Positions 40,941-56,037 of a DNA stretch of 64,000 nt are shown here, piece after piece. Location: assembly GCA_903860135.1 (NCBI GenBank), contig CAIOPG010000006.1, forward strand, positions 100,275 to 164,274, in the 5' to 3' direction. A model generated the notes under the pieces. That model made no database searches and was not told where the DNA came from. It worked only from the letters and a program-made list of their open reading frames with translations. Origin of the DNA: Candidatus Omnitrophota bacterium (GTDB lineage: Bacteria > Omnitrophota > Gorgyraeia > Zapsychrales > Fredricksoniimonadaceae). The translations under genes were made by a program, and so were the position numbers. Position 1 is the stretch's first letter. Each line of letters begins with the position of its first letter.

Positions 40941-40966
40941 TTGTGCGTGTTGCTTGAAAATATCAG

Positions 40967-41111
40967 TGTGATCTTTTACCGGTTCTTAAGGCTTGCGGAT
41001 GCCTTGCTGCTCAGACAGCAGAAACAGCTTTTTCTTGAAATACTTTAAGGAAAGCTTGGTTTCTGAACTCGCGACGGCGGCACTCTTCAGCCTTAAACCG
41101 GTAAAAGCTAG
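40967..41111 (+). repeat. copy 2 of the ~146-nt structured intergenic element, upstream of ahbA
   Basis: Same architecture as copy 1. Its outer stem is cttttaccggttcttaaggcttg / cagccttaaaccggtaaaag, with compensatory changes (aag→agg in the 5' arm paired with ctt→cct in the 3' arm) relative to copy 1. Confidence 0.8.
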
Positions 41112-41130
41112 TCGGAAATATGGTTATTAT

Positions 41131-41583
41131 ATGTTGACTATAAAAGATAAGAAATTTCTCAGGAAGCTTCAGACGGATTTCCCGTTGGTGTCCCGGCCTT
41201 TTGCTGTGTTGGCGGCAGAGCAGGGAGTTACCGAGGCGGAGCTGTTGGCTTATTTCAAGGATTTGCGTCAACAAGGTGTCCTGCGTTATATCGCGGTGAT
41301 GTTTGAATTGAAGGCGCTGGGTATTATTTCAAGTTTGATCGGTATGCGCGTCCCTGCGGACAAACTTGATGCGACGGTGGCTATCATCAATGCGTATCCG
41401 AATGTAAGCCATAATTATCTGCGCGAAGGTGAGTACAATGTCTGGTTCACTGTCAGTGCGGCGTCGGAACGCCGTCTTAAATCGATCCTGGCAGATATCC
41501 GCAAGAAGAGCGGTATTAAAGCTATGCTGGACCTAAGGACGCGGCGGGTTTTTAAGAATCAGGCTGTCTTTGAATTGAAATGA
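41131..41583 (+). CDS. siroheme decarboxylase subunit (AhbA/AhbB; NirD/NirL-like Lrp/AsnC fold)
   Basis: About 150 aa, similar to NirDLGH-type subunits. The start is placed after the repeat element; the listed ORF 40993.. reads through the repeat. Confidence 0.7.
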   Translation: MLTIKDKKFLRKLQTDFPLVSRPFAVLAAEQGVTEAELLAYFKDLRQQGVLRYIAVMFELKALGIISSLIGMRVPADKLDATVAIINAYPNVSHNYLREGEYNVWFTVSAASERRLKSILADIRKKSGIKAMLDLRTRRVFKNQAVFELK

Positions 41584-41584
41584 T

Positions 41585-42055
41585 ATGAAAATATCCAAAG
41601 AAATCATCTTTGCCCTTGCGGCGCCATTAAAACTGGTTAAACAACCGTATGCCGCCATCGCCAAAGAATTGGGCATCGACGAAGCGACCCTTTTAACCAA
41701 GATCAGGCAATGCAAGGCTGCGGGCGTTATTCGCCGTGTGGGTGTTGTTCTGGGGCATTTCAAGGCCGGATACACGAGCAATGCGCTGGTCAGCTGGAAT
41801 GTCGCCGAAGCTGATCTTGAGGCTCAGGGCAAACTACTGGCCACGTTTCCTCAAGTTACTCACTGCTATGTGCGTCAGACGTATCCGCAGTGGCCGTACA
41901 GCCTTTATACCATGGTGCACGCGCGGCATGCTAAAGAGCTGGCGGCGACGATCAAGGCCATGGCGCAGCAGTCGGGGATTAAGGATTACACGATCAGGAC
42001 AACGCTCAAGGAATTCAAAAAGATCAAAAGTGATCTGAAAGGGATACTCGCATGA
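41585..42055 (+). CDS. siroheme decarboxylase subunit (AhbA/AhbB paralogue)
   Basis: Paralogous to the preceding gene (...LGIDEATLLTKIRQ...AGVIRRVG...). Confidence 0.7.
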   Translation: MKISKEIIFALAAPLKLVKQPYAAIAKELGIDEATLLTKIRQCKAAGVIRRVGVVLGHFKAGYTSNALVSWNVAEADLEAQGKLLATFPQVTHCYVRQTYPQWPYSLYTMVHARHAKELAATIKAMAQQSGIKDYTIRTTLKEFKKIKSDLKGILA

Positions 42056-43314
42056 AATTTGATCGATCCAGGAAACTTTTTACGGAGGCCTGCCGTTATT
42101 TTCCTGGCGGCGTTAATAGCCCGGTGCGTGCCTTTGGTGCGGTGGGCGGGAGCCCTCTTTTTATCAAGAAAGGCGCCGGGTCGAAGATCACCGATGTTGA
42201 CGGGAATACGTACATTGATTATGTGATGAGCTGGGGGGCGTTGATCCTCGGGCATGCGGTTCCGGAAGTTGTAGCGGCTGTCAGTAAGGCGGCGGCTTTA
42301 GGGTCAAGTTTCGGCGCGCCGACTGAGTCCGAATCGAAGCTGGCAACGGTTATTTCACACGCAATACCGTCGATGGAGCGCCTGCGTTTGGTTAGTTCGG
42401 GGACGGAAGCCACGATGAGCGCGATCCGTCTAAGCCGCGGGTTCACGGGGCGCGACAAGATCATCAAATTTGATGGCTGTTATCACGGGCATGGCGACAG
42501 CTTGCTCGTCAAGGCTGGTTCGGGGGCGGCCACGCAGGGCATCCCCGGGAGCGCGGGGGTGACAGCGGCCCTCAGCCGGGATACGCTGGTATGCCCTTAC
42601 AATGATATAAGTGCGTTGCGTAAGATTGTCGCCCAGCATGCGGCGTCGATCGCCTGTGTGATCATCGAGCCGGTGGCGGCGAATATGGGCGTTGTGATGC
42701 CCGATGCGGCTTTTCTTCAGGCAGTGCGCGACCTTACGGCCAGGCATGGCATTGTCCTGATCTATGATGAGGTCATCACAGGCTTCCGTTTTCATTTTGG
42801 CGGGGTGCAGACCCTGCAGAAGATCAAGCCTGACCTGACCTGCCTCGGCAAGATCATCGGCGGGGGGCTTCCGATCGCCGCTTACGGCGGGAAGAAAGAG
42901 ATCATGGATTGCGTGGCACCTTTAGGCCAGGTGTATCAGGCCGGGACGCTGTCGGGCAATCCCGTTGCTGTGGCGGCGGGACTGGCGATGCTGAAAGTGC
43001 TCAAGACCAAAGATTATGCCGCGCTCGATCACAAGGCCGCGCGCCTGTGTGAAGGGTTGAAAGAAAGTTTCACACGCAAGCATATGCCAGTCACGATCAA
43101 TCGCGCCGGGTCATTGTTCACTGTTTTCTTTACACCTCAGCCCGTCACAGATTTTACGACGGCAAGAACGTCTGATACGAAGAAATATGCGGCGTATTTC
43201 AAGGCCATGCTTCATGCGGGCATCAATTTGCCGCCGTCGCAGTTCGAGGCGCAGTTCCTTTCTTTTAGCCACACGGATAAAGATGTGGCCTTGACGCTCA
43301 GGGCGGTAAAATAA
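42052..43314 (+). CDS. hemL: glutamate-1-semialdehyde 2,1-aminomutase
   Basis: ...YFPGGVNSPVRAF... and the PLP Lys region. Confidence 0.9.
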   Translation: MKFDRSRKLFTEACRYFPGGVNSPVRAFGAVGGSPLFIKKGAGSKITDVDGNTYIDYVMSWGALILGHAVPEVVAAVSKAAALGSSFGAPTESESKLATVISHAIPSMERLRLVSSGTEATMSAIRLSRGFTGRDKIIKFDGCYHGHGDSLLVKAGSGAATQGIPGSAGVTAALSRDTLVCPYNDISALRKIVAQHAASIACVIIEPVAANMGVVMPDAAFLQAVRDLTARHGIVLIYDEVITGFRFHFGGVQTLQKIKPDLTCLGKIIGGGLPIAAYGGKKEIMDCVAPLGQVYQAGTLSGNPVAVAAGLAMLKVLKTKDYAALDHKAARLCEGLKESFTRKHMPVTINRAGSLFTVFFTPQPVTDFTTARTSDTKKYAAYFKAMLHAGINLPPSQFEAQFLSFSHTDKDVALTLRAVK

Positions 43315-44796
43315 ATGGGCAAAGATCAACTGAAAGCGTCGCAGGTGCGACCTTTTTTCGTGTGTCTTTTATTTGCCATTTGCTTTCTTTTGCGGCTCTA
43401 TCAGCTGGGTTATCATGACCTCTGGTTTGACGAGGTCGCTTCGGCAGGTTATGCCCAGCACCCGTGGGGTAACTGGAATGCGCCATTTTATTGGATATTC
43501 TTGCATGGGTGGGTGAAATTCTTCGGATTTTCTGAATTTGTTTTACGGTTTCCTTCTCTCATTTTCAGTCTTTCTTCCGTTGTTTTTTTATTCTTTCTTG
43601 GTAAAGAGTTGTTCAACGCGCGGGTTGGTTTTTGTGCGGCTTTGTTCATGGGTTTGTCGCCTTTTCATTTATGGTATGCGCAAGAGGCCAGGGATTACAC
43701 TATGGTCTTGTGCCTAGGCGTCTGCGCTTCCTTATTGTTGGCCAAGGCATTGAAGCAGGACCGTAGTATATTCTGGATATCTTTCGCGCTAGTTTCCATG
43801 ATCGGGCTGTATACAAATTATTTCTATGCTGTTCTGCTGATGGCACAGGGCGGTGTGGTCTTGGCTTTTAAAAGGCATCAGATAAAGTTCTTGGAAGTGC
43901 TTTCTTTCCTGATTCCAGTGCTGGCCTTTTCTTATTACCTGCCACATTTCTTTGAGAAGTTCATTTATATTGCGCATGGGTTTTGGGTTCCCCGGCCATC
44001 GCCTGCATCGTTACTAATAACGTTGGAGAATTTTTTGCTGGGATATAATGGCTGGCCGGCATTATATTTGGTAGCGGACATCGTTATAGGCATCTTGTTC
44101 GTTGCAGCCTGCTGGAATGCTTATCGGCAGAAGTTGTACCAGAATTTTCTGGTATGCCTGGTCTTATTTTTGATCCCTATTGGTTGCATTTTTATCTTTT
44201 CCATAAACTTTTTCTCCATTTACCTGGATCGCGCGTTTCTGATCTTCACGCCTTTCTTTTATCTTGTTTTATCTGTAGGCCTGGGTTATGCCTCGCGCTG
44301 GTTCAGGTTCTTGGCGGTGGCTGTTCTGGCGGGATTGATGTTAACGTCGGTCGCGGCATTCTTTAAGAATCATATGGTGATGCCTTTTGAACATCATGTG
44401 GGGGTCTGGCTCAAGAAACCGATTAAGCCTGTAGGGGTTTTTCTGAAGGCGCATCTGGCGTCGGATGATGCCTTGGCGTTTACAAATAATTCTATTCTAC
44501 GATCTTTGTATTTCTACCATCATCAAGGTCTACCTTTATATTATTATTTATTTGATCCAAGGTTCCCCGAGACCGACTGGCAGCGGCCGATCCAGGAAAG
44601 TCCTCGTTGCATTCCGTATTACAAGGCAAGCGGGTTGAAATTCAATAAATTATGGGTGGTTTTCTCGGACTGGCCGCGGGACAAAACCCTTGGCCCAAGT
44701 TCGCAATCGACCAAGGACTGGCTGGACAAGAATATGGTTCAGGAATTTTCCAGGGAATTTGATGGACTGATGGTGGTACGCTATGCGCGCCCATAA
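43315..44796 (+). CDS. GT-C glycosyltransferase (GT39/ArnT/PMT-like polytopic membrane protein)
   Basis: About 11 TMs, with the DE motif in the first loop (HDLWFDEVASA) typical of GT39/GT83. Confidence 0.7.
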   Translation: MGKDQLKASQVRPFFVCLLFAICFLLRLYQLGYHDLWFDEVASAGYAQHPWGNWNAPFYWIFLHGWVKFFGFSEFVLRFPSLIFSLSSVVFLFFLGKELFNARVGFCAALFMGLSPFHLWYAQEARDYTMVLCLGVCASLLLAKALKQDRSIFWISFALVSMIGLYTNYFYAVLLMAQGGVVLAFKRHQIKFLEVLSFLIPVLAFSYYLPHFFEKFIYIAHGFWVPRPSPASLLITLENFLLGYNGWPALYLVADIVIGILFVAACWNAYRQKLYQNFLVCLVLFLIPIGCIFIFSINFFSIYLDRAFLIFTPFFYLVLSVGLGYASRWFRFLAVAVLAGLMLTSVAAFFKNHMVMPFEHHVGVWLKKPIKPVGVFLKAHLASDDALAFTNNSILRSLYFYHHQGLPLYYYLFDPRFPETDWQRPIQESPRCIPYYKASGLKFNKLWVVFSDWPRDKTLGPSSQSTKDWLDKNMVQEFSREFDGLMVVRYARP

Positions 44797-46009
44797 CGCT
44801 AGCGATCATCGCACCCCGGCCACGCGGCTGTTGTGCGCGATAATTGGCGAAGTTGTGACCCAAAAGAAGGACGAGCGTATGCCCGCCCTGATCGGGGCAT
44901 CGACGATCGATTGGGATGTTTTTAAGCGCGGTCTTGGGTATCATGGCCTAGGGCCGTTGGCGTACATGAGCTTGAAAGCGTATGCGGACACGTTGCCGCC
45001 TGATATCGTCGGTACGTTAAAGGCAACATATTATGCTTCCTTAAAACAGGTCGTGGCTTTTGAGGAGCATTTCTTTATTTTGGAAGCGGCATGTGCTCAA
45101 CAAGGACTGTTGATGGTACCGTTCAAGGGCATGGCCATCGTTGAGGATCTTTACGCGGAAAATCCTGTCCGGCCAAGTTGTGACATTGATGTTTTGGTGC
45201 ACCGGGAGGATATTGATCAGGTTATCACGGTCATGGAGGGGCTGGGATTTGAAAAAGAATTATCCGGGCTGAAAGAGTCTTACTGGAGGACACAGTATCA
45301 TATTGCTCTTCGGAAGAATGTCCATGGCCGGCGGCCGTTAGTGGTCGAGGTGCATTGGGATATTGATTATCCGCGCAAAGGGCGGCCTTTATTACCGGAG
45401 AAGTTTAACCGGTTAAGGGAGATCGCCGTCGGCGGGCGAAAGGTCAAGATTCTTTCGGTGGAAGATACGTTCTTTGGCTTAGCTTTGCACCAGCGGCGGT
45501 TTGGTCAGGTCCTCAACCTTAAGGATGTATGTGACATGGGCCGGTTGCTGAAGAAATACGCGGCTACTTTTGACTGGGATTATATTATTCGGGAGAGCAG
45601 GAGTTCTAGGTTGCGCGCCACGGTTTATTTCGCGCTTTTTCAGGTGAAATTCTTCTTTGACATTCATGTTCCTGAGCAGGTGATGGCGGTTTTGGCTGTG
45701 CCATCTTTCCAGAAAAAGATGATCGAGCGTTTTATAAGAAGGAATACCTTTTGGGATGATCCGGATTATAATTTAAAAGACCGTTTTCTAAAGGTGCATT
45801 TTTTGTTATATGATGACATTTGGGAGCCGGCAGTTTATATTCTGGTGATCCCTATTGAACAGTTTGCCAAGTTCTATGAACTCGATCCATATACTAGGAA
45901 GACAAGGTGGCTGTATCACTTCAGTTTCTTTTATGTGATATTCCGCCGAGTTCTGGTGTATTGGAGAAGATTATGGAAATGGTTTGACCGGAGGTGTCAT
46001 GAAGAATAA
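44783..46009 (+). CDS. nucleotidyltransferase-family protein of the type found in RiPP clusters (PF14907-like), putative
   Basis: The hG[S/G]-type region ...MVPFKGMAIVEDLY...CDIDVLVH resembles a minimal nucleotidyltransferase (GS...D.D). The true start is probably the internal MPALIG (~44879). Confidence 0.45.
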   Translation: MRAHNASDHRTPATRLLCAIIGEVVTQKKDERMPALIGASTIDWDVFKRGLGYHGLGPLAYMSLKAYADTLPPDIVGTLKATYYASLKQVVAFEEHFFILEAACAQQGLLMVPFKGMAIVEDLYAENPVRPSCDIDVLVHREDIDQVITVMEGLGFEKELSGLKESYWRTQYHIALRKNVHGRRPLVVEVHWDIDYPRKGRPLLPEKFNRLREIAVGGRKVKILSVEDTFFGLALHQRRFGQVLNLKDVCDMGRLLKKYAATFDWDYIIRESRSSRLRATVYFALFQVKFFFDIHVPEQVMAVLAVPSFQKKMIERFIRRNTFWDDPDYNLKDRFLKVHFLLYDDIWEPAVYILVIPIEQFAKFYELDPYTRKTRWLYHFSFFYVIFRRVLVYWRRLWKWFDRRCHEE

Positions 46010-47126
46010 TTTTTCGATCAATCAGCCTTTAGCGGCATTCTCGTTATGGCAGAAGTTTAAGGCGGAAAGAAGGTTGTATGCATTTGATCTGGAGATCACG
46101 GCCCGGTGCAATAACAACTGCCGTCACTGTTATGTGAATTATCCGGCGGATTGTAACGAGATCCGACAGAAGGAGCTCTCTCTAGATCAGATCAAGCACC
46201 TCGTTGACCAAGCGGTTGATATGGGTGCGTTGTGGTGCCTGATCACAGGCGGAGAGCCACTGTTGCGCCCGGACTTCTTTGATATTTATTTTTACATCAA
46301 AAGCAAAGGACTTTTGGTTTCGGTCTTTACTAACGCGACCATGATCACAGAGGAGCATGTGGCCTTCTTCAAGAAATATCCGCCACGCGAAATTGAGGTG
46401 ACGGTTTATGGCGTGACCTGCGCGACCTATGAGGATGTCAGCCGGGTCAAGGGCTCGTTTAGCCGGTTTATGCGTGGGGTGGATCTGTTGATGACAGGTG
46501 GCGTCAAGGTGCGTTTCAAAGCCATGGCCTTGCGTTCTAATGTTGATGGAATGCAGGCGATTGCTACTTTCTGCCGTGAAAGGACCCGCGATTATTTCCG
46601 GTTCGACCCATCCCTGCATCTGCGTTGTGATGGGGATATTCAACGGAATGAAGAGATCCGTTCCGAGCGATTGTCGCCCGCCGAGTTTGTGGCCCTTGAA
46701 AAAGCGGATGCGGAACGTTTCGGAGCACTCGAGAAGAACTGCGATAAACTCATTGTGCCTGCGCTGGAGCATCTTGCCTGCCATCATCTTTTCCATTGCG
46801 GGTCAGGCAATGGGAGTTTTTATGTCAGTTATGACGGCTTTTTCCGCTTGTGTTCGTCTTTGTGCCAGAAAGATTGTGTTTATGACTTAAAGAAAGGTTC
46901 GCTGAAAGAAGCCTGGGAGTGCTTTGTGCCACAAGTGCGCGCGATGACATCCGACAACAAGGAGTTCCTGGAAAAGTGCCGCGTGTGCCCGATCATCAAT
47001 CTCTGTCTCTGGTGCCCAGCGCACGCGCATCTTGAGACCGGTCGGCTCGACCAGCCAGTCCAATTTTTTTGCGATATAGCGCATGCACGGCAAGCTTCGC
47101 TTGAGGCGAATAATAAAGTTAGTTAA
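45984..47126 (+). CDS. radical-SAM/SPASM peptide-modifying enzyme (paralogue 1)
   Basis: CNNNCRHCY cluster, and a C-terminal SPASM-like Cys cluster (CGSGNGS...CRVCPIINLCLWCPAHA). Confidence 0.8.
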   Translation: MTGGVMKNNFSINQPLAAFSLWQKFKAERRLYAFDLEITARCNNNCRHCYVNYPADCNEIRQKELSLDQIKHLVDQAVDMGALWCLITGGEPLLRPDFFDIYFYIKSKGLLVSVFTNATMITEEHVAFFKKYPPREIEVTVYGVTCATYEDVSRVKGSFSRFMRGVDLLMTGGVKVRFKAMALRSNVDGMQAIATFCRERTRDYFRFDPSLHLRCDGDIQRNEEIRSERLSPAEFVALEKADAERFGALEKNCDKLIVPALEHLACHHLFHCGSGNGSFYVSYDGFFRLCSSLCQKDCVYDLKKGSLKEAWECFVPQVRAMTSDNKEFLEKCRVCPIINLCLWCPAHAHLETGRLDQPVQFFCDIAHARQASLEANNKVS

Positions 47127-47157
47127 ATGGGCGTCATAAATCTACGGAGGGTTCATA

Positions 47158-47342
47158 TGACTGAGAAAATGGATAAGAAATGGACTACGCCGCAGTTGAT
47201 TCAGTTGGTTAGAGGTGGCGAGGAGGAGGGTGTGTTGGGGGTGTGCAAATACTATATGACTGGTGGTCCGATTTATAGAGATTGTGTAACATATGAGGCC
47301 GATATGTCTGCTTATACTTGTTTTGCATATTCACCGTCGTAA
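47158..47342 (+). CDS. candidate RiPP precursor peptide (61 aa; 71 aa if started at 47127)
   Basis: RBS GGAGGG lies 5 nt upstream of the ATG at 47158. The sequence is MTEKMDKKWTTPQLIQLVRGGEEEGVLGVCKYYMTGGPIYRDCVTYEADMSAYTCFAYSPS, with 3 Cys, 6 aromatic residues, a GG motif and a C-terminal Ser. It lies between the rSAM gene and the ABC exporter and is followed by an AT-rich spacer. Confidence 0.4.
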
Positions 47343-47491
47343 GACATGCGAATTAATAGTGTCAGTACTCCTCAAACTGATGAAGTAAAACAAGTTAAAT
47401 TGTAATTTGTTCAATACGGTCACTGATAATATTGACAGACAACTTGGAGTTGTTTGTAGCATTAGATTAACTAAACCAACTTAAGACAACG

Positions 47492-49270
47492 ATGAACCCT
47501 CCTTGGAATCTTTTAAAAGAATTCTATCATTTCCTTGTCCCTTATTACCGCAAACAGGGTGTCGCCTTGGTGCTGACACTTGCCGGTGTCCTGCTCAGCC
47601 TTGTCAATCCTTACTTGACTAAATTGATGGTGGATCGCGCGATCATGGGCAAAGACGTGAAGATGTTCTTGATCCTCGGTGGGATCGGTGCTGGGGTATT
47701 CCTGCTGAACAGTCTTGTCAACGCGGGGGCGGAATACATCACCAAGGATATCAGGATCAGGCTTGGCTTTGATCTTAACAGGAAAATATTCACGCACCTT
47801 CAGCGGCTCCCCTTGGGTTTCTTCAAGATCAGGTCTACTGGGGAACATATGTTCAAGGTCAACTATGATGTGGACCGGGTGGCGGATCTGTTGAGTTTTA
47901 TTCCCCGCGACGCGGTCAATATTTTCCCTAAATTCCTGTGTACGTTTGTGATCATTGCTTGGCTGGATGGGTCGATGGCACTTGTTGCCCTGCTGGTACT
48001 GCCATTGGTATTTTGGCCTGTCAACCGGATGACCCAACGGATGCAGGAGGTGTACCGCGCCATGGTTGACAGATCCCAGGACATTTTCAGGAAGATGGGA
48101 GAAATATTCTCGCACATATACTTGGCTAAGGTATTCGGGAAGGAGCGGGCACAGACACGCGGATACCTGCGCGCGGTGATCGCCCGTATGCGCTGGGAAT
48201 TCAGTAACATTCGCCTTGAGGTGCTTAATACGCTCATGGCCGGCAGCCTCAATCGCGCGATCATCGCTGTTCTTACTTTGTTCGGTGCCTGGCAGGTGAT
48301 GCAAGGCAAGGTGACGCTGGGGACATTGGCCGCGGTGCTGGTCTATCTGGCGGAACTGGTCTTGTTGCAGAGTAGTGTTGTGTTCCTTTTTCAGCGGGTG
48401 AGTATGGGGCTCATTTGTTGTGGCCGGCTGGACGCCTTGTTGAACCAACCGCCGCAAGAGCTTCACGCGGACGGGGCAAAAGTCAACATGAGCGATGCCG
48501 TGGATATTCGGTTTAAAAATGTGTCATTCGGGTATCGTCCCTCTGAGATCATCTTACGGGATACGGCGTTTGAAATACCCGGCGGCTGGGTGGCCCTGGC
48601 TGGCGCTTCGGGCTGCGGGAAGACGACCATCATCAATCTTCTGCTGGGGTTTTATCAGCCGTTCCAGGGGCAGATATTCGTCGGCGGCCATGATATGCGT
48701 GCCATCGACTTGGCTTTTTGGAGAAACCAGCTTGGCGTCGTGACACAAGAACCTTTCTTGTGGGATGACACGGTGGCGAATAATTTGAAATATGCCTGCC
48801 CGCACGCATCTGATGATGAGATGGCTCGCGTGGCTCAGATGACCGGGGTGAACAATATGATTCGGTCACTGCCCCACGGCTATAACACGCTCATTGGCGA
48901 GCGGGGGTGCCTGCTTTCCGAAGGGCAGAAGCAACGCATCGCTCTGGCCAGGGCCTTGCTCAAAAGGCCGAAGATCCTTATCCTGGACGAAGCCATGTCG
49001 TCCATCGATGCTTTAAGTGAAGAGCAGATCATCGCGGTTCTACGCGCGATCCCGGAGGTCACGCAGGTCTTGCTTGTATCGCATCGCTGGTCGACAGTGT
49101 CCAGTTGTGATCATGTGCTATATTTTAACGGTGACCGGCCGGTAATAACCGGTCAGCCTGCGGATCTTATGCAGCATAACGCGGCGTTTCGTGCCCTTTT
49201 CGCCCGTCAGATGAACAATGATCGGGAACATATTCATGCTATACCAGCACTGGAGAATGAACATGCCTGA
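47492..49270 (+). CDS. ABC exporter, fused permease + ATPase (no C39 peptidase domain)
   Basis: Six TMs, then Walker A (GASGCGKTT), the signature LSEGQKQRIALARA and Walker B (ILILDEA). Confidence 0.85.
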   Translation: MNPPWNLLKEFYHFLVPYYRKQGVALVLTLAGVLLSLVNPYLTKLMVDRAIMGKDVKMFLILGGIGAGVFLLNSLVNAGAEYITKDIRIRLGFDLNRKIFTHLQRLPLGFFKIRSTGEHMFKVNYDVDRVADLLSFIPRDAVNIFPKFLCTFVIIAWLDGSMALVALLVLPLVFWPVNRMTQRMQEVYRAMVDRSQDIFRKMGEIFSHIYLAKVFGKERAQTRGYLRAVIARMRWEFSNIRLEVLNTLMAGSLNRAIIAVLTLFGAWQVMQGKVTLGTLAAVLVYLAELVLLQSSVVFLFQRVSMGLICCGRLDALLNQPPQELHADGAKVNMSDAVDIRFKNVSFGYRPSEIILRDTAFEIPGGWVALAGASGCGKTTIINLLLGFYQPFQGQIFVGGHDMRAIDLAFWRNQLGVVTQEPFLWDDTVANNLKYACPHASDDEMARVAQMTGVNNMIRSLPHGYNTLIGERGCLLSEGQKQRIALARALLKRPKILILDEAMSSIDALSEEQIIAVLRAIPEVTQVLLVSHRWSTVSSCDHVLYFNGDRPVITGQPADLMQHNAAFRALFARQMNNDREHIHAIPALENEHA

Positions 49271-50264
49271 GGTTTATTTACCATCTCGAAAAGTTTCTGA
49301 TTTACCGCAGATACCGCTCGATGGTCGCATGGAATTCATGGAAAATTGCGGTTCGTGTGCGTCGCATAGAGAACACTGCCGATTTTATCAGATCGCCGGT
49401 CTATCGATCCGGGTGGAATCTGACTTGCCGATGTCCGACCAGACCTTTCATTTGAAATTTAAGCATTTTGAGATCAAAGTCCCTAAGGCTGACATGATCA
49501 CGATCAGGCATCATTTTAGTTTGCCGAACCTTGATGGGAAAGACCTTGGCCGTGAGGTTTATCGTAAGGTACCGTGGGCTATTTACAGAAAGGGAAATTC
49601 CTGGATATATCTTGGTATTGCACCGACGGAAGGAGACAATTCTCTGCACCGGGTTGTTCGCTGTAATGATGATCATACGCAGGTGACGATCTATAATGAT
49701 AAAATGACAGAGGATGAATTTCTGAAAGGTGAACAACATTCATTGACCTTTTTTCCGACGGACCAGATTCTGATAGCGCGTGTCCTGGCTGACAGGAATG
49801 CTTTTTACCTGCATTCCTGCGGTGTCAGGTTCCACGGTCAGGGTCTTCTTTTTGCCGGGCACTCCGAGGCTGGCAAGTCCACCACGGCCACTATGTTAAA
49901 AGACCGGGCTGACATCCTTTGTGATGACCGGATGATCATTCGGGGAACCGGCACGGACCAGGGATTCGATATCCATGGGACATGGAGCCATGGGGATGTG
50001 CCGGATGTGTCGGCGGGATCCGCGCCACTACGGGCGATCATGTTTCTGGAAAAATCCGATGCTAACAGGCTTATCCGTCTCCATGACAAGAAGGAAATCA
50101 TACGCAGGATGCTCGAATGCCTCATCAGGCCTTTTGTGACCGCGGATTGGTGGCATAAAACCCTGTCGGTCGTGGAAAGGGTCGTTGATAATGTACCCTG
50201 TTATGTGCTCAAATTCGACCGGAGCGGCAAAGTGGTAGACCTGTTGCAGAAGGAGTTGCAATGA
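49263..50264 (+). CDS. HPr-kinase C-terminal-domain-like P-loop protein (HprK-related kinase), putative peptide kinase
   Basis: P-loop LLFAGHSEAGKSTTATML followed by ...DDRMIIR.. resembles the HprK/P C-terminal kinase fold. The start was chosen at the ATG at 49263 (an 8-nt overlap with the ABC stop). Confidence 0.55.
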   Translation: MPEVYLPSRKVSDLPQIPLDGRMEFMENCGSCASHREHCRFYQIAGLSIRVESDLPMSDQTFHLKFKHFEIKVPKADMITIRHHFSLPNLDGKDLGREVYRKVPWAIYRKGNSWIYLGIAPTEGDNSLHRVVRCNDDHTQVTIYNDKMTEDEFLKGEQHSLTFFPTDQILIARVLADRNAFYLHSCGVRFHGQGLLFAGHSEAGKSTTATMLKDRADILCDDRMIIRGTGTDQGFDIHGTWSHGDVPDVSAGSAPLRAIMFLEKSDANRLIRLHDKKEIIRRMLECLIRPFVTADWWHKTLSVVERVVDNVPCYVLKFDRSGKVVDLLQKELQ

Positions 50265-51439
50265 CCGCTGAGGCTTATCTTGTTCGACGGAATGTTAACC
50301 AACCGTCTTCAGGAAAAATATCACCGCCGCGTCTTTTAGGACGATTGGATATGATCCTTACCGAGCGTTGCAATAATAATTGTGTTCATTGCTACATAAA
50401 TCTTCCATCCGGCGACCTAGATGCTAGGAAGAAAGAATTATCGACGGATGAAATAAAGAATATCCTCAAAGAAGCCGTAACGTTAGGGTGCATGATGGTG
50501 CGTTTCTCTGGTGGTGAGCCGCTGTTACGCGAGGATTTTGGGGAACTCTATCTTTTTGCCCGAAGGCAGGGGCTTAAGGTGGCGATCTTCACCAATGCCA
50601 CGTGCATCACGCCAGACCTTGCCGATCTCTTTGCGCGTATTCCACCCAAAGAAAAGATCGAGATCACGGTGTATGGGATGAAGCAAGAATCTTACGAGGC
50701 GGTGACGTGCGTGCCAGGCTCTTTTGCCAAAGCCTGGCGGGGGATTCATTTACTTCAGGAAAGAAAAGTTCCTTTTGTGGTCAAAGGGGCATTGTTGCCG
50801 GATAATAAGGATGATGTCGATGAATTTGAGGCCTGGGCCGCGACCATCCCATGGATGGAAAAACTGCCTGGGTATTCCATGTTCTTTGACCTGCGATGCC
50901 GCCGGGAGGAAGGTAAAAATCGCAGTATAATGGCGGTAAGAGCGACGCCGGAGAACGGGGTTAAATTCATGACGCGTAGAAAAGAAGAATTTCTAAAAGA
51001 CCAAAAGCAATTCTGCTCCCAATTCATGCGCCCTTCTGGCGACAAACTTTTTTCGTGTGGTTCGGGCAAAGGGGGTGGGTGCGTTGATGCGTATGGCGGG
51101 TTTCAGATGTGCATGATGCTCCTGCATCCTGATACGGTCTATGATCTTAAACAGGGCACGCTTCAAGATGCGCTTGAAAGATCTTTTCCGGCTTGCCGTA
51201 ACACGACGGCGGTGAATAAGGATTATCTGCAACGGTGTGCCCGGTGTTTTCTTAAAGGCTTGTGTGAACAGTGCCCGGCGAAGTCATGGGCCGAGCACGG
51301 CACCCTCGATACGCCCGTTGAATATTTCTGCCAGGTAGCACACGCCCAGGCGCGCTTCCTTGGATTGATCGGTGAAGGTGAGAAGGCATGGGAAGTAGTG
51401 GACGCGGAGCAAAGGATTGAGAAATTCGTTAATAGTTAA
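50261..51439 (+). CDS. radical-SAM/SPASM peptide-modifying enzyme (paralogue 2)
   Basis: CNNNCVHCY cluster, a C-terminal Cys cluster (CGSGKGGGC...CARCFLKGLCEQCPAKS), and clear paralogy to 45984..47126. Confidence 0.8.
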   Translation: MTAEAYLVRRNVNQPSSGKISPPRLLGRLDMILTERCNNNCVHCYINLPSGDLDARKKELSTDEIKNILKEAVTLGCMMVRFSGGEPLLREDFGELYLFARRQGLKVAIFTNATCITPDLADLFARIPPKEKIEITVYGMKQESYEAVTCVPGSFAKAWRGIHLLQERKVPFVVKGALLPDNKDDVDEFEAWAATIPWMEKLPGYSMFFDLRCRREEGKNRSIMAVRATPENGVKFMTRRKEEFLKDQKQFCSQFMRPSGDKLFSCGSGKGGGCVDAYGGFQMCMMLLHPDTVYDLKQGTLQDALERSFPACRNTTAVNKDYLQRCARCFLKGLCEQCPAKSWAEHGTLDTPVEYFCQVAHAQARFLGLIGEGEKAWEVVDAEQRIEKFVNS

Positions 51440-51448
51440 GGAGGTCGG

Positions 51449-51760
51449 ATGCAGAAACACGTTATATTAGAAAGTATTTACAAGCCTTCGGAAGATGTGG
51501 TGGCGCGGGATGTCCAAGGCGAATTTGTCATTATACCTATCACGAGCGGTATCGGTGACGGTCAGGATGACATTTTTACAATGAACGACACTGGTCGCGT
51601 TGTCTGGGATCACCTCGACGGCAAAAGGACGCTGAAAGAAATAGGGCTGGAACTTTCCGGAAACTACGACGCCGCACCCGGACAAGTCGAACAGGATGTT
51701 GCCGGTATTGTGCAGGAATTGTTGAATAAGAATATTGTAGTAGAAGTCCCTGCGGTTTGA
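51449..51760 (+). CDS. PqqD-family protein (stand-alone RiPP recognition element)
   Basis: About 100 aa; ...GEFVIIPI...FTMNDTGRVVWDHLDGKRTLKEIGLELS...DVAGIVQELLNKNIV matches the PqqD/RRE pattern. Confidence 0.65.
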   Translation: MQKHVILESIYKPSEDVVARDVQGEFVIIPITSGIGDGQDDIFTMNDTGRVVWDHLDGKRTLKEIGLELSGNYDAAPGQVEQDVAGIVQELLNKNIVVEVPAV

Positions 51761-51819
51761 TCGGATAGTGTCAAAAGTTTTATGAAGAATGTGCATAAAA
51801 AAGGATTTTGATATGAATT

Positions 51820-51852
51820 CCCCTCCCCGCTTCAGCGTGGGAGGGAGTTTTA
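51820..51852 (+). terminator. putative intrinsic terminator after pqqD-like gene
   Basis: GC-rich stem ccctccccgct / agcgtgggaggg with a 2-nt loop, followed by aGTTTTaa. Confidence 0.45.
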
Positions 51853-51929
51853 AGCTATTTAGATATAAGGGTTTTGCGAGTTGGAAGCTAGAACTTTTGA
51901 CAGAACACGCCTAAAAGCGAGGGTATCTT

Positions 51930-53027
51930 ATGCGTTGCTGTAACCGTCATTATCAGGATTTCTGCGGGCATATTTATAAATATGCCCCGGCCTGTGAGGC
52001 GATCAACAGCAAGGACGCGGTCAATGCGGCGTGTTCTTTAAGAAATCAAAGTGATACCGGTTTGGTTGTGCGATTTTTTGACTCTGGGCGAGAGATCGTC
52101 GACAAGAACAAGATGGTTTTCCATCCGCAGGGGATATGCATGTACCCGTGCATACGGCCCGGGGACAGGCTTCACATAGAATCGCGCTCGATAGAACAGG
52201 TCAAGATTGGGGATATTGCGGTGTATCGCCGGTTCAACCGGCTGTTTGCCCACCGTGTTATTGGCGCAGGCGAAAAGCTTGGTGCCCATTATATCATCAC
52301 CCGCCCTGATACGGCACCGCGCGGTGATGATGGTCCGACGTTCGATGAGGATATTCTGGGGGTTGTGGTGCGCCTTGAACGCAAGGGAAAGATACTGGGT
52401 ATTGTTCGCAAAACATACCCGCTGTTGCATAGAATACTCCTCGATATTCACGTTCTTCCGTATCGTTTGGCCGGTCAGCTTTGGGCTTGGCTTTCTTTTC
52501 ATTTAAGCCTTATTCAACAGTATTCATTCTACCGGGTCTTCGCGCAATACTTGTTTATGAACAAGAAGGTTGAATTTTCTCTGCAGGTCCCGATCAATGC
52601 CAGGCCGGACAGCCGGCTTTTTCAGAAACTTTCCCGTGAAGGATTGCTCGACCGGTTGAGCGCTGAAGAACCTGTTGCCAAATGGTCCCTGCACGTGGCA
52701 GTGAAGGCGAGATCTGTTGGGTATGTGTCATTCGTCCGTAAGCCAGAGTCCTGCCTTCACCGTGGCTGGTGGGTGTATGAAGCGCATATTGATCCTTTAT
52801 ATCGAGGGACAGCGGTTGAAACGAGATTGCTCCAGGAAGTTGTTCTTATCCTCGGTCGTGCCGGGATCAAAGCAGTTTCTGTCACCGCCTTCGGGGATGC
52901 GATAAAGGATCGGCTGTTTTTCAAGAATATGGGATTTAACGAAGTTTCTTCGTATCGAGATGTTTTGTTAAAAGGTCAATGCTACGGGGCTGTGGAACGG
53001 GTGATCATGAAAATGTATATTTGTTGA
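51930..53027 (+). CDS. S26/S24-like peptidase domain (apparent Cys/His variant) fused to a GNAT-like acetyltransferase domain, putative
   Basis: Signal-peptidase-like boxes: GICMYPCIRPGD (box B, with Cys at the Ser position), IGDIAVYRR (box C), LFAHRVIGAGE (box D, with His at the Lys position). The C-terminal ...YRGTAVETRLLQEVVLILGRAGIKAVSV...FFKNMGF resembles GNAT motif A. Confidence 0.4.
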   Translation: MRCCNRHYQDFCGHIYKYAPACEAINSKDAVNAACSLRNQSDTGLVVRFFDSGREIVDKNKMVFHPQGICMYPCIRPGDRLHIESRSIEQVKIGDIAVYRRFNRLFAHRVIGAGEKLGAHYIITRPDTAPRGDDGPTFDEDILGVVVRLERKGKILGIVRKTYPLLHRILLDIHVLPYRLAGQLWAWLSFHLSLIQQYSFYRVFAQYLFMNKKVEFSLQVPINARPDSRLFQKLSREGLLDRLSAEEPVAKWSLHVAVKARSVGYVSFVRKPESCLHRGWWVYEAHIDPLYRGTAVETRLLQEVVLILGRAGIKAVSVTAFGDAIKDRLFFKNMGFNEVSSYRDVLLKGQCYGAVERVIMKMYIC

Positions 53028-53081
53028 AAAATCGGGACACACTACTTACTGGTTTTAATGCACAAACCGGGTTTATTTTGT

Positions 53082-53105
53082 AACTTTCAGCCTGCTGGCG
53101 CGTTT
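53082..53105 (+). promoter_or_regulatory. possible ECF-type autoregulatory promoter (AAC – 16 nt – CGTTT) upstream of the ECF sigma gene
   Basis: tAACtttcagcctgctggcgCGTTTa lies 20 nt upstream of the ATG at 53126; the spacing fits ECF -35/-10 geometry. Confidence 0.3.
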
Positions 53106-53125
53106 AAAGGGTAGGAGAGGGCGAT

Positions 53126-53704
53126 ATGGAAAGAACGGATGAAGAACTGATCCGCGCGTATGCCTCCGGCGAACCGGACGCTGTGGGGCTGTTGTTTGCG
53201 CGGCACAAGGGGAGCATTTTCAATTTTGCCTTGCGGCTTATTGGCAACAGGGCAGATGCCGAAGATGTGACCAGCGATGTCTTTCTTCAGCTCTTTAACA
53301 GGCGCTATCAGGCAACCCCGCAGGCCAAATTCACCACCTGGCTTTTTACGGTGGCGCGCAATGCCTGTCTGTCCAGGATAAGGACCCGCAATATGCTGGG
53401 GTCTTTCTGGTTCAAGCGGGACGGCGACGATGGTTTTGAGGAACAGGAGATAGCTGATCCTGCGGGCAATCAAGGTGAGGCTTTAAGGAATAAGGAAAAA
53501 GCCAAGATGGTGAAGCAGGCCGTTATGGCCTTACCTCCGATGCAGAAAGAAGCGTTGATCCTGCGTGAGTATTGCAACAAGGATTATGCCGAGATCGCGG
53601 CGATCCTGGGCTGTTCCTTTGATAATGTTAAAGTGCTTATATTCCGCGGCCGCGAGCGTTTGCGCGTAAGCCTGGCCGCCTGGATGAAGGAGGAAACCCT
53701 ATGA
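53126..53704 (+). CDS. ECF (group IV) sigma-70 factor
   Basis: Region 2 (...DVTSDVFLQLF...) and region 4 (...EALILREYCNKDYAEIAAILGCSFDNVKVLIFRGRERLR). Confidence 0.85.
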   Translation: MERTDEELIRAYASGEPDAVGLLFARHKGSIFNFALRLIGNRADAEDVTSDVFLQLFNRRYQATPQAKFTTWLFTVARNACLSRIRTRNMLGSFWFKRDGDDGFEEQEIADPAGNQGEALRNKEKAKMVKQAVMALPPMQKEALILREYCNKDYAEIAAILGCSFDNVKVLIFRGRERLRVSLAAWMKEETL

Positions 53705-55899
53705 ACGAGCAAGACAAGCTCCTCATATCCGCTTACGCCGACGGCGCGCTCTCTCCAGACGATGCCGCTCGTGCCGAAAGCCTCCTGGCCGGTGATCGTG
53801 CGTGCCGGGCCTACCTCGAGGACATCCGTAAGATTTCCATGTCGCTGTCGGTGGTGAAGGACGAACAGCTCTCTCCCGATGCTGAGATCCAGATCATCCA
53901 ACGCTTGCACAAGGAGACAACGTATATGAAACCCAATACATGGAAGACAGCAGCAACCGTGTGCGTGACCATTGTGGTCGCGTTTTTGGTAATGCAGAAT
54001 TATGCACACAGGACATTGCAGGGACGATTAAAGGATGCGAATGTACTGTTTCGTGACAGTATTGGATCAACGTTGAAGTATGAACCGTATTATACAAATA
54101 CAAGTGCCGCTTCGGATAAGTCTTCTGTAAAGCATGCGGAAGGGTATGTTGATTCGACTGTCTATTCAAGCGGTCTAATGCGCGATACTATGTCCCGTAA
54201 CGCAAAGTCTATTGGTACTGATGCTAAAGATGCTTATGGGGGTGTTGCGCCGGGGGTTGATACATCTGTCTATTTCGAAGCGCCTGTAGAAGGGGCTCTC
54301 ATCTTAAAATCTTCTTTCGCTGGTTTTGGAGGGGAGAATGATAAAGTAAGTAATGATATCGGCGATCAGTATTCTACCGCTACTTACGCTAATTATCAGA
54401 GGGGCGTCAGTGCGCTTGATCATCAACAATATACGCCTTCCTACACCGAAGAATACCCCTTCTTCAATGAGAATGAATTCTTGACCACCGACCAGAACCC
54501 GTTGTCCACATTCTCGACAGATGTTGACACGGCCTCTTACAGCAATCTGCGGCGTTATCTGACCCGGAATCAGGTGCCGCCACAGGATGCGGTGCGGCTC
54601 GAGGAGATGATCAATTACTTCTCTTATAATTATCCCAATCCCAAAAATGGGGAACCGTTCTCGATCACGACGGACCTGGCGGTGTGCCCATGGGCCCAGA
54701 AACATTTGCTGTTGCGCATTGGGCTAAAGGGGCGGGTGCCAGACGAAGAAACGCTGCCGGCGAGCAATCTGGTGTTTCTCATTGACGTGTCCGGCTCCAT
54801 GCAAGATGGCAACAAACTGCCCCTTCTTAAAGAAGGTTTCAAGATGATGGTGCGTCAATTGCGCCCTGAAGACCGGGTATCGATCGTTGTTTATGCGGGT
54901 TATGCCGGAAAGGTGCTCGACACCACGTCGGGGTATGACAAGGACGCGATCATTAATGCCATTGATAATCTGCAAGCCGGTGGTTCGACAGCCGGCAATG
55001 AAGGGATTCAGCTGGCGTATCGGACGGCCCGGGAAAGCTTTATCCGGGGCGGGAACAATCGCGTGATCCTGGCCACCGACGGGGATTTTAACGTGGGCTT
55101 GTCGGATATCGGTGCCTTGACGCGCATGATCGAGGATAAACGCCGCGAAGGTGTTTTTCTGACGATATTGGGCGTGGGCAACGGGAATTATAAGGATGAC
55201 CGTTTGCAGGCACTGGCAGATAAAGGCAACGGGAATTATTTCTACCTTGATTCTATCCGCGAAGCTCAGAAAGTCCTGGTCCATGAATTGGGGTCCACTT
55301 TATTCACGATCGCCAAGGACGTGAAGATCCAGGTGGAATTTAATCCGTCGCAGGTCAAGGCCTATCGCTTGCTGGGTTATGAGAAACGCATCATGGCCAA
55401 GCAGGATTTCAATAATGACGCCAAGGATGCCGGCGAGATCGGGGCCGGGCATACGGTCACCGCCTTGTATGAACTGGTGCCCCCCGGTGTTGATGATGTG
55501 CCTGTGAGTGTGGATGATCTCAAATATGCCCGCACCAGGCCGTCATTCGGTGCGGAAGTTTTGACAGTAAAATTGCGTTATAAGGAACCGGACGGGAATG
55601 TGAGCAAGCTTATTACCAAAGGTGTTGGCAAGTCCTGGTTGCAGCTGGAACCATCGGGCGATTTCGCCTGGTCTGCCGCCGTGGCCGAATTCGGGATGCT
55701 GATCAAGGCTTCTTCGAGCCGGGCCAGGGCGTCGTTCGATCATGTCCTTAAAGCCGCCAGGGCAGCCAAAGGAGATGACAGATCCGGCCAGCGCCAGGAG
55801 TTCATCGACATGGTTGAAACCGCCCGGGATATTGTCCCTGAAAGTAATGGGCGGATCAATTTCAAGAGTGAAAAGCGAGAAGAGCGCCGGGAGGATTAG
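53701..55899 (+). CDS. anti-sigma factor (N-terminal zinc-finger-like anti-sigma domain, one TM) with periplasmic VWA domain
   Basis: N-terminal ...LISAYADGALSPDD... anti-sigma motif, a TM (AATVCVTIVVAFLV), a VWA MIDAS motif (LVFLIDVSGSM), and a 4-nt overlap with the sigma gene. Confidence 0.7.
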   Translation: MNEQDKLLISAYADGALSPDDAARAESLLAGDRACRAYLEDIRKISMSLSVVKDEQLSPDAEIQIIQRLHKETTYMKPNTWKTAATVCVTIVVAFLVMQNYAHRTLQGRLKDANVLFRDSIGSTLKYEPYYTNTSAASDKSSVKHAEGYVDSTVYSSGLMRDTMSRNAKSIGTDAKDAYGGVAPGVDTSVYFEAPVEGALILKSSFAGFGGENDKVSNDIGDQYSTATYANYQRGVSALDHQQYTPSYTEEYPFFNENEFLTTDQNPLSTFSTDVDTASYSNLRRYLTRNQVPPQDAVRLEEMINYFSYNYPNPKNGEPFSITTDLAVCPWAQKHLLLRIGLKGRVPDEETLPASNLVFLIDVSGSMQDGNKLPLLKEGFKMMVRQLRPEDRVSIVVYAGYAGKVLDTTSGYDKDAIINAIDNLQAGGSTAGNEGIQLAYRTARESFIRGGNNRVILATDGDFNVGLSDIGALTRMIEDKRREGVFLTILGVGNGNYKDDRLQALADKGNGNYFYLDSIREAQKVLVHELGSTLFTIAKDVKIQVEFNPSQVKAYRLLGYEKRIMAKQDFNNDAKDAGEIGAGHTVTALYELVPPGVDDVPVSVDDLKYARTRPSFGAEVLTVKLRYKEPDGNVSKLITKGVGKSWLQLEPSGDFAWSAAVAEFGMLIKASSSRARASFDHVLKAARAAKGDDRSGQRQEFIDMVETARDIVPESNGRINFKSEKREERRED

Positions 55900-56037
55900 T
55901 CAATAAAGATTATTTTTAAATTCTTTTTCCCCCCTGATGATGGCAGCATCATCAGGGGGTTTCTTTTCCAGATCAAGTGCGCAAAAAGTTCTTAAATTCC
56001 CTTTTCTCCTTCAGCATCTTGGGGTATATTACGGCAT

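Follow-up and report, generated by a model that had tools for sequence, protein, structure and literature searches.

A putative ScmC-type radical SAM peptide cassette in Candidatus Omnitrophota and the precursor family that accompanies it

Layout of the cassette

We analyzed a 64,000-nucleotide stretch of a Candidatus Omnitrophota bacterium genome (GenBank assembly GCA_903860135.1, contig CAIOPG010000006.1, positions 100,275 to 164,274 of the forward strand), referred to here as the window and used as the frame for all coordinates. Between 44783 and 53027, the window carries eight co-directional, mostly overlapping genes on the + strand, encoding in order a nucleotidyltransferase (NTase), a radical S-adenosylmethionine (rSAM)/SPASM maturase (rSAM-1), a 61-aa precursor peptide, an ATP-binding cassette (ABC) exporter, a ScmC-like protein, a second rSAM/SPASM maturase (rSAM-2), a PqqD protein, and a peptidase-GNAT protein. 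Judged from the sequences and their conservation, the operon probably directs the biosynthesis of a ribosomally made, cross-linked, and exported peptide, as a member of a ScmC-type radical SAM family of peptides that are made by the ribosome and modified after translation (RiPPs).

A preliminary description of this DNA had proposed a RiPP-type operon of eight co-directional genes, and all eight were recovered on the + strand at the positions it gave; the gene order was checked and all domain calls were verified. Its reading of the first gene as an rSAM enzyme had to be given up, as 44783-46009 encodes the NTase, and so did its view that the two rSAM genes are tandem, since three genes (precursor, ABC, and ScmC) separate them. 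Their paralogy was borne out (38% identity, E 3e-74). The genes are as follows.

44783..46009, + strand: PF14907 (NTP_transf_5) nucleotidyltransferase, 408 aa; 141.9 bits, E 3.4e-41
45999..47126, + strand: rSAM/SPASM maturase 1, 375 aa; PF04055, E 1e-22
47157..47342, + strand: predicted precursor peptide, 61 aa; GGAGG ribosome-binding site, family hidden Markov model (HMM) 70.9 bits
47492..49270, + strand: ABC exporter, a half-transporter with fused transmembrane and nucleotide-binding domains, 592 aa; PF00664 and PF00005
49263..50264, + strand: ScmC-like HprK/PEPCK-fold P-loop protein, 333 aa; PF27840, precomputed
50261..51439, + strand: rSAM/SPASM maturase 2, 392 aa; PF04055, E 4.6e-22
51449..51760, + strand: discrete PqqD-family RiPP recognition element (RRE), 103 aa; PF05402, 52 bits, E 9e-14
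51930..53027, + strand: Sec11/S26B-like peptidase (about residues 60-160) with a probable GNAT-fold domain (about 210-365), 365 aa

The eight genes are part of an unbroken series of open reading frames (ORFs) on the + strand from 43315 to 55899, with junctions that comprise overlaps of 14, 11, 8, and 4 nt and gaps of 30, 149, 9, and 169 nt. Gene starts were taken from the gene calls recorded on identical public contigs. For the precursor, the 71-aa longest ORF was replaced by the 61-aa ORF, which has a ribosome-binding site (GGAGG, 5 nt upstream of the start) and whose exact protein is on public record. For the ScmC-like gene, a start at 49218 (the 348-aa longest ORF) had no exact public match, and the gene was taken to start at 49263.

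Distribution of the family and its precursor peptides

Searching 185,579 species genomes with patterns derived from a ScmC alignment, we obtained 270 loci that were confirmed by tblastn. We compared the top 79 of the 270, searching their six-frame ORFs with the window proteins; the 39 loci of at least 14 kb are called long loci below. All 79 come from assemblies of uncultured organisms, nearly all labeled as metagenome-assembled genomes (MAGs), and they include 21 Omnitrophota (best match 80% identical), 6 Planctomycetes, 9 methanogens (Methanothrix/Methanotrichaceae, Methanoregula, and Methanomicrobiales), as well as Chlorobiaceae, Syntrophorhabdales, Aminicenantes, Desulfobacterota, and others. 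A ScmC profile search of 1.84 billion representative sequences gave 325 clusters (50% identity) at E≤1e-30, 4,403 at E≤1e-10, and 12,262 at E≤0.001. The gene set, earlier described as composite, thus belongs to a large and conserved family (270 genomes, 325 clusters).

The recurrent gene order was [rSAM-ScmC fusion]-rSAM-2-PqqD-[Sec11-like peptidase]-rSAM-1. Among the 39 long loci, rSAM-2 and rSAM-1 were each present in 38, PqqD and the Sec11-like peptidase each in 37, and the precursor in 34, with the ABC exporter in 19, the NTase in 18, and a homologue of the adjacent glycosyltransferase (GT) in 4. Because the same set recurs in dozens of loci that span phyla, the arrangement is far beyond chance. 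Co-conservation, which the preliminary description had suggested testing for this gene set, holds for the rSAM enzymes, PqqD, and precursor together with the ScmC-like protein, and extends to the NTase in about half of the loci. As judged from the compared sequences, the core of the system is made up of ScmC, the rSAMs, PqqD, the peptidase, and the precursor, with the NTase and ABC exporter as a frequent accessory module.

The precursor family, for which neither Pfam nor NCBIfam has a model, was uncovered by scanning the DNA of the related loci with a purpose-built HMM made from their small ORFs. A word-indexed protein search with the window precursor returned two sequences only, itself and one homologue of 68% identity, with an identical leader, a divergent core, and both the C-terminal YSPS and the gene order kept. 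The HMM detected 124 peptides in 64 of 81 loci, with up to 11 per locus and exactly one in the window. Residue statistics given here refer to the 109 unique full-length sequences.

The leaders share the consensus (K)KKW-x-K-P-x-L-(I/V)-V-L-V-R-G-x-P-E-E-x-V-L-x-x-C-K, in which the Trp and Pro are present in 100% of the precursors. The distance from this Trp to the first cysteine (Cys1) is 21 residues in 99/109 precursors, Cys1 is followed by Lys in 97%, and it is preceded by an invariant Leu at position -3 and small residues at -2 and -1. The leader motif W-x-K-P-x-h-x-x-L-x-x-G resembles the PqqD-bound part of PqqA (MWKKPAFIDLRLGLE...); we regard this likeness as a lead and not as a test.

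Behind the leader lies a stretch of 18-60 residues that is hypervariable apart from its cysteines, which follow the pattern C(K)-x14-16-C-x4-8-C-x2-3-C. Of the 109 precursors, 102 end in Ser and 4 in Thr, compared to a background of 10% C-terminal Ser among the remaining small ORFs of these loci (binomial p ~1e-92). Exactly six residues follow the last Cys in 91/109, forming a Cys-x5-Ser tail. In the window precursor, the leader comprises residues 1-29 (47157-47243) and the core, CKYYMTGGPIYRDCVTYEADMSAYTCFAYSPS, residues 30-61 (47244-47339); this core is a three-Cys variant that keeps the six-residue tail, ends in YSPS, and is Tyr-rich (6/32).

Since the small ORF is conserved beside the rSAM genes, with a conserved leader and a variable core, the comparison supports its assignment as the precursor of the cluster. 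Large precursor arrays occur in some of the related loci (referred to by number), namely L025 (a Dehalococcoidia MAG; 11 copies), L063 (8 copies), L018 (6 copies), and L035 (6 copies). Their leaders are near-identical and their cores differ, as in combinatorial RiPP families. In L003, two truncated precursor-like ORFs (3649-3756 and 5205-5387 of that locus) stop directly after the leader, and one more precursor has Phe in place of Cys1; these could reflect decay, duplication, or assembly error.

Predicted enzymes and flanking genes

Both window rSAMs contain the CX3CX2C motif and a complete seven-Cys SPASM pattern in which CX2C replaces the usual CX3C: CNNNCRHC in rSAM-1 and CNNNCVHC in rSAM-2, each followed by CX12GX4C, CX2CX5CX2C, and a terminal Cys. 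The Pfam SPASM model was not reported for either protein at E≤0.01. The motifs are kept in 56-57/57 orthologues of rSAM-1, 63/63 of rSAM-2, and 64-65/65 of a third, fused enzyme (rSAM-0). Full-length matches of rSAM-1 to rSAM/SPASM peptide-maturase families were all below the cut-offs, and the two enzymes had no family-level match in NCBIfam, their best scores being divided among enzymes for heme, PQQ, mycofactocin, and sactipeptides. Across loci, the rSAM-2 gene lies nearly always directly downstream of ScmC.

In 71/78 related loci, ScmC is fused to rSAM-0, a third rSAM/SPASM enzyme with intact motifs. The resulting protein of ~650 aa has a complete rSAM/SPASM N-terminal half and ScmC as its C-terminal half (e.g., L018:8885-10921 and L049:8942-10948). 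A free-standing ScmC with no detected fused-rSAM orthologue was found in the window, L019, L040, L072, and L076, the last of which has only a weak rSAM-like ORF (73 bits) ~2 kb upstream. The free-standing proteins are polyphyletic and each is nearest to fused ones (80% identity of the window protein to the fused L003 protein, 79% for L019), so that rSAM-0 appears to have been lost independently and the ScmC of the window, by the same comparison, to have lost its rSAM domain. In the closest relative, L003 (Ca. Omnitrophica AM4_bin-704), a free-standing ScmC occurs alongside an rSAM-fused one.

The number of precursor cysteines followed the presence of rSAM-0. Every precursor in the unfused loci has three Cys, and 90/96 precursors in the fused loci have at least four (Fisher's exact p 6e-6 by precursor, 1.7e-4 by locus); the Cys that is lacking in unfused loci is the first of the CX2-3C pair. 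Of the evidence at hand, this covariation speaks most strongly for the cysteines as targets of the rSAM enzymes, with one enzyme per Cys. If there is indeed one rSAM per Cys, then Cys1 of the invariant C-K would have another role.

For the ScmC-like protein, sequence matches to known families were weak: Hpr_kinase_C gave 17.6 bits, TIGR04355 (HprK-related kinase B) 24 bits, and TIGR04249 (ScmC) 34.1 bits over profile positions 121-228 only. Pfam family PF27840 (PF27840.1, ScmC) is precomputed for the window protein and all 120 listed homologues; it was not reported in a local Pfam scan of the window protein, so membership rests on the precomputed match, which comes without a score. An alignment of 20 homologues showed an invariant P-loop (G199 H200 S201 G204 K205 T207, with A203 and S206 at ≥90%) and an invariant C220 D221 D222 R223. 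In a Foldseek search with the AlphaFold (AF2) model (pLDDT 83.6), ATP-PEPCK was matched at E 1e-7 and HprK/P at E 1e-5, with a TM score of ~0.5 on the HprK domain. ATP-PEPCK and HprK/P belong to one fold family of P-loop phosphotransferases. Upon HMM searching, the HprK-like and PF14907 assignments of the preliminary description thus held.

The peptidase-GNAT protein had been described as an S26-like peptidase/GNAT fusion, and our comparison agrees with a Sec11/S26B-like peptidase domain, in which Cys replaces the catalytic Ser, and a probable GNAT fold. Its N-terminal domain matched TIGR02228 with 35.4 bits (E 8.8e-9), below the 51.85-bit cut-off, and both the profile and the single sequence matched human SEC11A in the PDB (E 0.01-0.02). 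In the alignment to SEC11A, Cys70 falls on the catalytic Ser (a position that is Ala in the 9rjb chain), FAH108RV on IVHRV, and TRPD127 on TKGD. Among 29 peptidase homologues, H108 and D127 are invariant and Cys70 is near-invariant, with Ser in one member. The canonical Ser-His-Asp set is therefore altered by Cys70, and the domain appears to be a Cys variant of the Sec11 fold and not a canonical signal peptidase I. The C-terminal domain gave Foldseek matches to many GNATs (E 3e-6, TMt ~0.6) and a PDB profile match to YycN (E 1.5e-4), with Acetyltransf_7 (16.6 bits) and Acetyltransf_1 (14.7 bits) both below the Pfam cut-offs. GNAT matches dominated the Foldseek search with the whole model, so kinship of the peptidase rests on the sequence and profile matches. 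No N-terminal membrane-anchor helix is present in the model. Of the 37 long loci with a peptidase homologue, 16 have the GNAT domain. Taken together, the 365-aa protein is a putative leader peptidase and acetyltransferase. Ahead of the peptidase domain (residues 1-60, 51930-52110), the first ~30 residues hold a conserved Cys-rich motif, CxNxxYxxFCxQxYxxxPxCE, that is missing in shorter homologues; the mean pLDDT of this region is ~63, and residues 24-44 are below 50.

In the NTase, G116, R130, D134, D136, and H191 are invariant and K115 is present in 96% of 28 cassette-linked orthologues, and these residues form a pol-beta-type G...DxD motif. The ABC exporter aligns to bacteriocin/NHLP exporters only from profile position ~141-158 onward and therefore is without the N-terminal C39 peptidase domain. 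The window PqqD gave sub-threshold matches to PqqD, lasso PqqD chaperones, and ScmD.

Features flanking the cassette, and one in its last spacer, are as follows.

43315..44796, + strand: PMT_2 (GT-C, GT39-like) membrane glycosyltransferase, 493 aa; PF13231, E 8e-14
51815..51850, + strand: hairpin followed by UUUUAAG, within the 169-nt PqqD-peptidase spacer
53126-53704, + strand: extracytoplasmic function (ECF) sigma factor; Sigma70_r2/r4
53701-55899, + strand: anti-sigma/VWA/YfbK_C protein; zf-HC2/VWA/YfbK_C

The GT39-like gene and the ECF sigma/anti-sigma pair had both been noted as flanks, and they fared differently. The GT gene overlaps the NTase gene by 14 nt and has homologues that adjoin the cassette in 6/79 loci (L003, L005, L017, L028, L032, and L057), mainly those with the most similar NTase; it is thus a possible accessory gene of the cluster in a subclade. 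The sigma/anti-sigma pair had no homologue in any of the 79 related loci and was rejected as a cluster member. The anti-sigma protein is a 732-aa fusion of zf-HC2, vWF_A, VWA, and YfbK_C domains. Farther downstream, at 56038-57352, translations resemble small membrane and Fe-S proteins from the start of an NADH:quinone oxidoreductase (nuoA/B/C-like) operon.

The hairpin at 51815-51850 has a folding energy of -21.2 kcal/mol (z = -4.05), and none of 200 shuffled sequences folded equally well. It was not called in a terminator scan and is possibly an attenuator or weak terminator. The sole strong intrinsic terminator of the region lies at 55930-55959, after the anti-sigma gene. A sigma-70 promoter scan was uninformative (15 sites versus 17.5 expected), and an Rfam search of 42000-57000 gave no match. 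Directly upstream, 37796-43314 is an alternative heme biosynthesis block with two AhbC/AhbD-like rSAM(/SPASM) genes (37796-38983 and 39969-40940), two genes for NirD/L-like siroheme decarboxylase subunits (40993-41583 and 41585-42055), and a hemL-like class-III aminotransferase gene (42052-43314). The aminotransferase gene ends right where the GT gene begins, so transcription may read through from the heme block into the RiPP cluster.

Proposed pathway, alternatives, and related systems

PqqD-type RREs have an established role in leader binding. In the pathway that we propose, the discrete PqqD would bind the PqqA-like leader of the precursor (KKW-x-x-P-x-L-x-x-L-V-R-G...EE-x-VL) and present the core to the enzymes. 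Each of rSAM-1 and rSAM-2 would then form one cross-link in the 32-residue core, most likely a Cys-derived thioether, and the third, ScmC-fused rSAM of the wider family would handle the extra Cys that the three-Cys core of the window lacks. The ScmC-like enzyme would phosphorylate the C-terminal Ser, and the PF14907 NTase, where present, would decorate the Ser phosphate in a pseudomycoidin-like manner. Given Leu at -3 and small residues at -2 and -1, a signal-peptidase-like -3/-1 site can be drawn on either side of Cys1, and the Sec11-like Cys/His peptidase would cut off the leader near this L-x-x-C-K junction. The fused GNAT domain may, speculatively, acetylate the product. Finally, the peptide would be exported by the ABC half-transporter and, once outside the cell, may be a substrate of the GT-C glycosyltransferase encoded by the neighboring gene.

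Support for the Ser-directed steps comes from lasso peptide clusters. There, linear precursors with little in common except a C-terminal Ser are phosphorylated on that Ser by HPr-kinase homologues, and in the case of pseudomycoidin the phosphate then receives one or two hexoses from a nucleotidyltransferase (PMC8498205). The paeninodin analogy drawn in the preliminary description was strengthened here by the Ser-ending precursors, Ser being the feature that the substrates of the lasso HprK enzymes have in common (PMC8498205).

More tentatively, as a possibility that we put clearly below the general reading of a cross-linked, exported peptide, the family could be a new RiPP class, spread across uncultured anaerobic bacteria and methanogenic archaea, in which up to three rSAM/SPASM paralogues serve one Cys each, an rSAM-fused kinase modifies the Ser exactly six residues past the last Cys, and a hitherto undescribed Sec11 peptidase with a Cys nucleophile removes the leader. 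The Ser might then be kept as a stable phospho(glycosyl)-Ser or serve as an activated intermediate for a C-terminal ring, which is likewise a tentative proposal.

Several points weigh against the proposed pathway. Its chemistry, from thioether formation and Ser phosphorylation to the cleavage site and acetylation, is predicted throughout. The similarity of ScmC to HprK is remote (17-34 bits; TM score 0.4-0.5), and its substrate could therefore differ, while its fusion to an rSAM in most loci could mean that ScmC has a role in the rSAM step instead of in tailoring. The NTase occurs in only about half of the loci, in contrast to the near-universal terminal Ser. The correlation between Cys and rSAM numbers rests on about five independent unfused loci, and SPASM enzymes also form C-C and C-O links. 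Lastly, the stable hairpin between the PqqD and peptidase genes may break up transcription of the cluster.

Some of these points lead directly to other readings. The fixed Cys-x5-Ser spacing (91/109) suggests a ring or a joint recognition unit, and phosphorylation could be transient, with ScmC activating the C-terminal Ser, or another hydroxyl, for elimination and the last Cys adding to the dehydroalanine to give a lanthionine-like C-terminal ring of fixed size; alternatively, ScmC could be the ATP-dependent partner of the rSAM to which it is mostly fused. The ScmC-rSAM/SPASM fusion in 71/78 loci and the dispensability of the NTase in half of the loci also fit such a scheme. We nevertheless consider it unlikely, as Pfam and NCBIfam showed neither a lyase nor a cyclase domain in the cassette, the spacing could equally reflect recognition by an enzyme, and the phospho-Ser formed by characterized relatives of this type of kinase is stable (PMC8498205). 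The cross-links themselves could be of another kind, with the rSAMs making C-C or C-O links on aromatic or aliphatic residues or acting as epimerases, and the cysteines forming disulfides or binding metal. SPASM enzymes catalyze many types of cross-link, the window core is rich in Tyr, and the scattered NCBIfam matches do not single out one type. With a core that is hypervariable outside the Cys and the terminal Ser, there is no other conserved target residue, and the number of Cys covaries with that of the rSAMs; this alternative thus also appears improbable to us, to about the same degree as a transient phosphate.

Two readings that start from known pathways can be given far less weight. A PqqA-like leader, PqqD, and PqqE-like rSAM/SPASM enzymes make up the core set of PQQ and mycofactocin biosynthesis, and the cassette could by analogy produce an intracellular peptide-derived redox cofactor. 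This is very improbable in view of the hypervariable cores, the up to 11 different precursors per locus, the ABC exporter alongside half of the loci, and the lack of a conserved cofactor-dependent dehydrogenase nearby in the related loci; scores also stayed below the cut-offs for PqqE (56-64 versus 381 bits), MftC (76 versus 265), and PqqD (34 versus 46). A divergent paeninodin-type lasso peptide cluster, as might be read from the HprK-like kinase, PF14907 NTase, PqqD RRE, ABC exporter, and C-terminal Ser that occur in phosphorylated lasso clusters, has next to no chance of being the correct reading. The conserved partners here are rSAM enzymes, the core does not follow the Gly/Ala-1 ... Asp/Glu-7-9 ring logic, and neither an asparagine-synthetase-like cyclase nor a transglutaminase-like B2 protease turned up when the 11 main + strand ORFs between 43315 and 55899 were scanned with Pfam and NCBIfam, in line with the earlier remark that the cluster lacks both; the 79 related loci were searched with the window proteins only, so that absence of lasso genes there is not shown directly.

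Compared to described systems, the architecture of the cassette, for which the preliminary description recognized no RiPP class, does have a precedent: it has been cataloged bioinformatically as the SynChlorMet type (SCM) and as PF27840. SynChlorMet (Haft; TIGR04248-TIGR04251, ScmC/D/E/F) likewise combines two PqqE-like rSAM/SPASM enzymes with a PqqD homologue and an HprK-like protein and occurs in similar taxa, i.e., syntrophs, Chlorobiaceae, and methanogens, and its models were among the top sub-threshold matches for the HprK-like protein, both rSAMs, and PqqD of the window. None of its cut-offs was reached: 34.1 versus 125 bits for ScmC (TIGR04249), 28.2 versus 100 bits for ScmD with the window PqqD, and, versus 400 bits for ScmE/F, 82.0 (ScmF) and 77.8 (ScmE) for rSAM-1 and 80.5 and 74.1 for rSAM-2. 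In the relatives L049 and L018, ScmE/F reached at most 87 bits, and the ScmC-containing fusions of the Chlorobiaceae and Methanotrichaceae loci gave no TIGR04249 match at E≤1e-10. Membership in the SCM equivalogs was rejected on account of these scores, far below the cut-offs both in the window and in its Chlorobiaceae and Methanotrichaceae relatives. The family of the window adds to the SynChlorMet set a Sec11-like peptidase, usually a third, ScmC-fused rSAM, and often the NTase and ABC exporter. By these sequence criteria, the window cluster is best described as belonging to a sister family within Pfam ScmC and not to SCM itself, on which we know of no experimental work. Our literature search brought up lasso reviews and unrelated papers but nothing on SCM/ScmC or on cassettes that combine rSAMs and HprK-like kinases; it did not cover subscription-only literature, and a prior description is possible.

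With paeninodin/pseudomycoidin lasso tailoring, the family shares the HprK-fold kinase, PF14907-type NTase, PqqD-type RRE, ABC exporter, and C-terminal Ser. It differs in having rSAM/SPASM enzymes as the putative macrocyclizing enzymes in place of a lasso cyclase and B2 protease, in the usual fusion of the kinase to an rSAM, and in the remote similarity to HprK. With sactipeptide and ranthipeptide systems (AlbA, StsB, and PapB, whose models gave sub-threshold matches to the window rSAMs), it shares the CX3CX2C and seven-Cys SPASM motifs, an RRE-guided leader, and a Cys-containing core, whereas its RRE is a separate protein, each cassette has two to three dedicated paralogous rSAMs, and a kinase, an NTase, and a Sec11-like peptidase are added. 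PqqD, the PqqE-like rSAM/SPASM enzymes, and the likeness of the leader to the PqqA N-terminus are reminiscent of the PqqA/PqqD/PqqE pathway, but the conserved Glu/Tyr target is absent, the cores are variable and multi-copy, there is an exporter, and the PqqD and PqqE cut-offs were not reached. The peptidase, finally, resembles Sec11/archaeal-type signal peptidase I (MEROPS S26B) in its SEC11A/TIGR02228 matches and its catalytic His and Asp positions, and departs from it in its Cys nucleophile, the lack of an anchor helix in the model, its encoding within a RiPP cassette, and the GNAT fusion in 16/37 loci.

What is newly established here, at the level of sequence comparison, is the precursor family with its near-invariant C-terminal Ser, the Cys-x5-Ser tail, the covariation of rSAM enzymes with Cys number, and the predicted Cys-nucleophile Sec11-like peptidase. 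An anonymous composite cluster thereby becomes a defined, testable family with an explicit precursor HMM, Cys and Ser positions, and enzyme set, which is apparently widespread, conserved, and uncharacterized. The family is common in Omnitrophota, Planctomycetota, syntrophs, Chlorobiaceae, and Methanothrix, groups for which hardly any natural products are known. For the ScmC-type cassettes, which have long been cataloged and left unexplained, the precursors offer a candidate substrate type, and the covariation of rSAM and Cys numbers predicts which enzyme acts on which residue. Phosphorylation or phosphoglycosylation of a C-terminal Ser would, if our reading is right, extend beyond lasso peptides, and the Sec11 fold with its predicted Cys nucleophile points to a leader peptidase of a type new to RiPPs.

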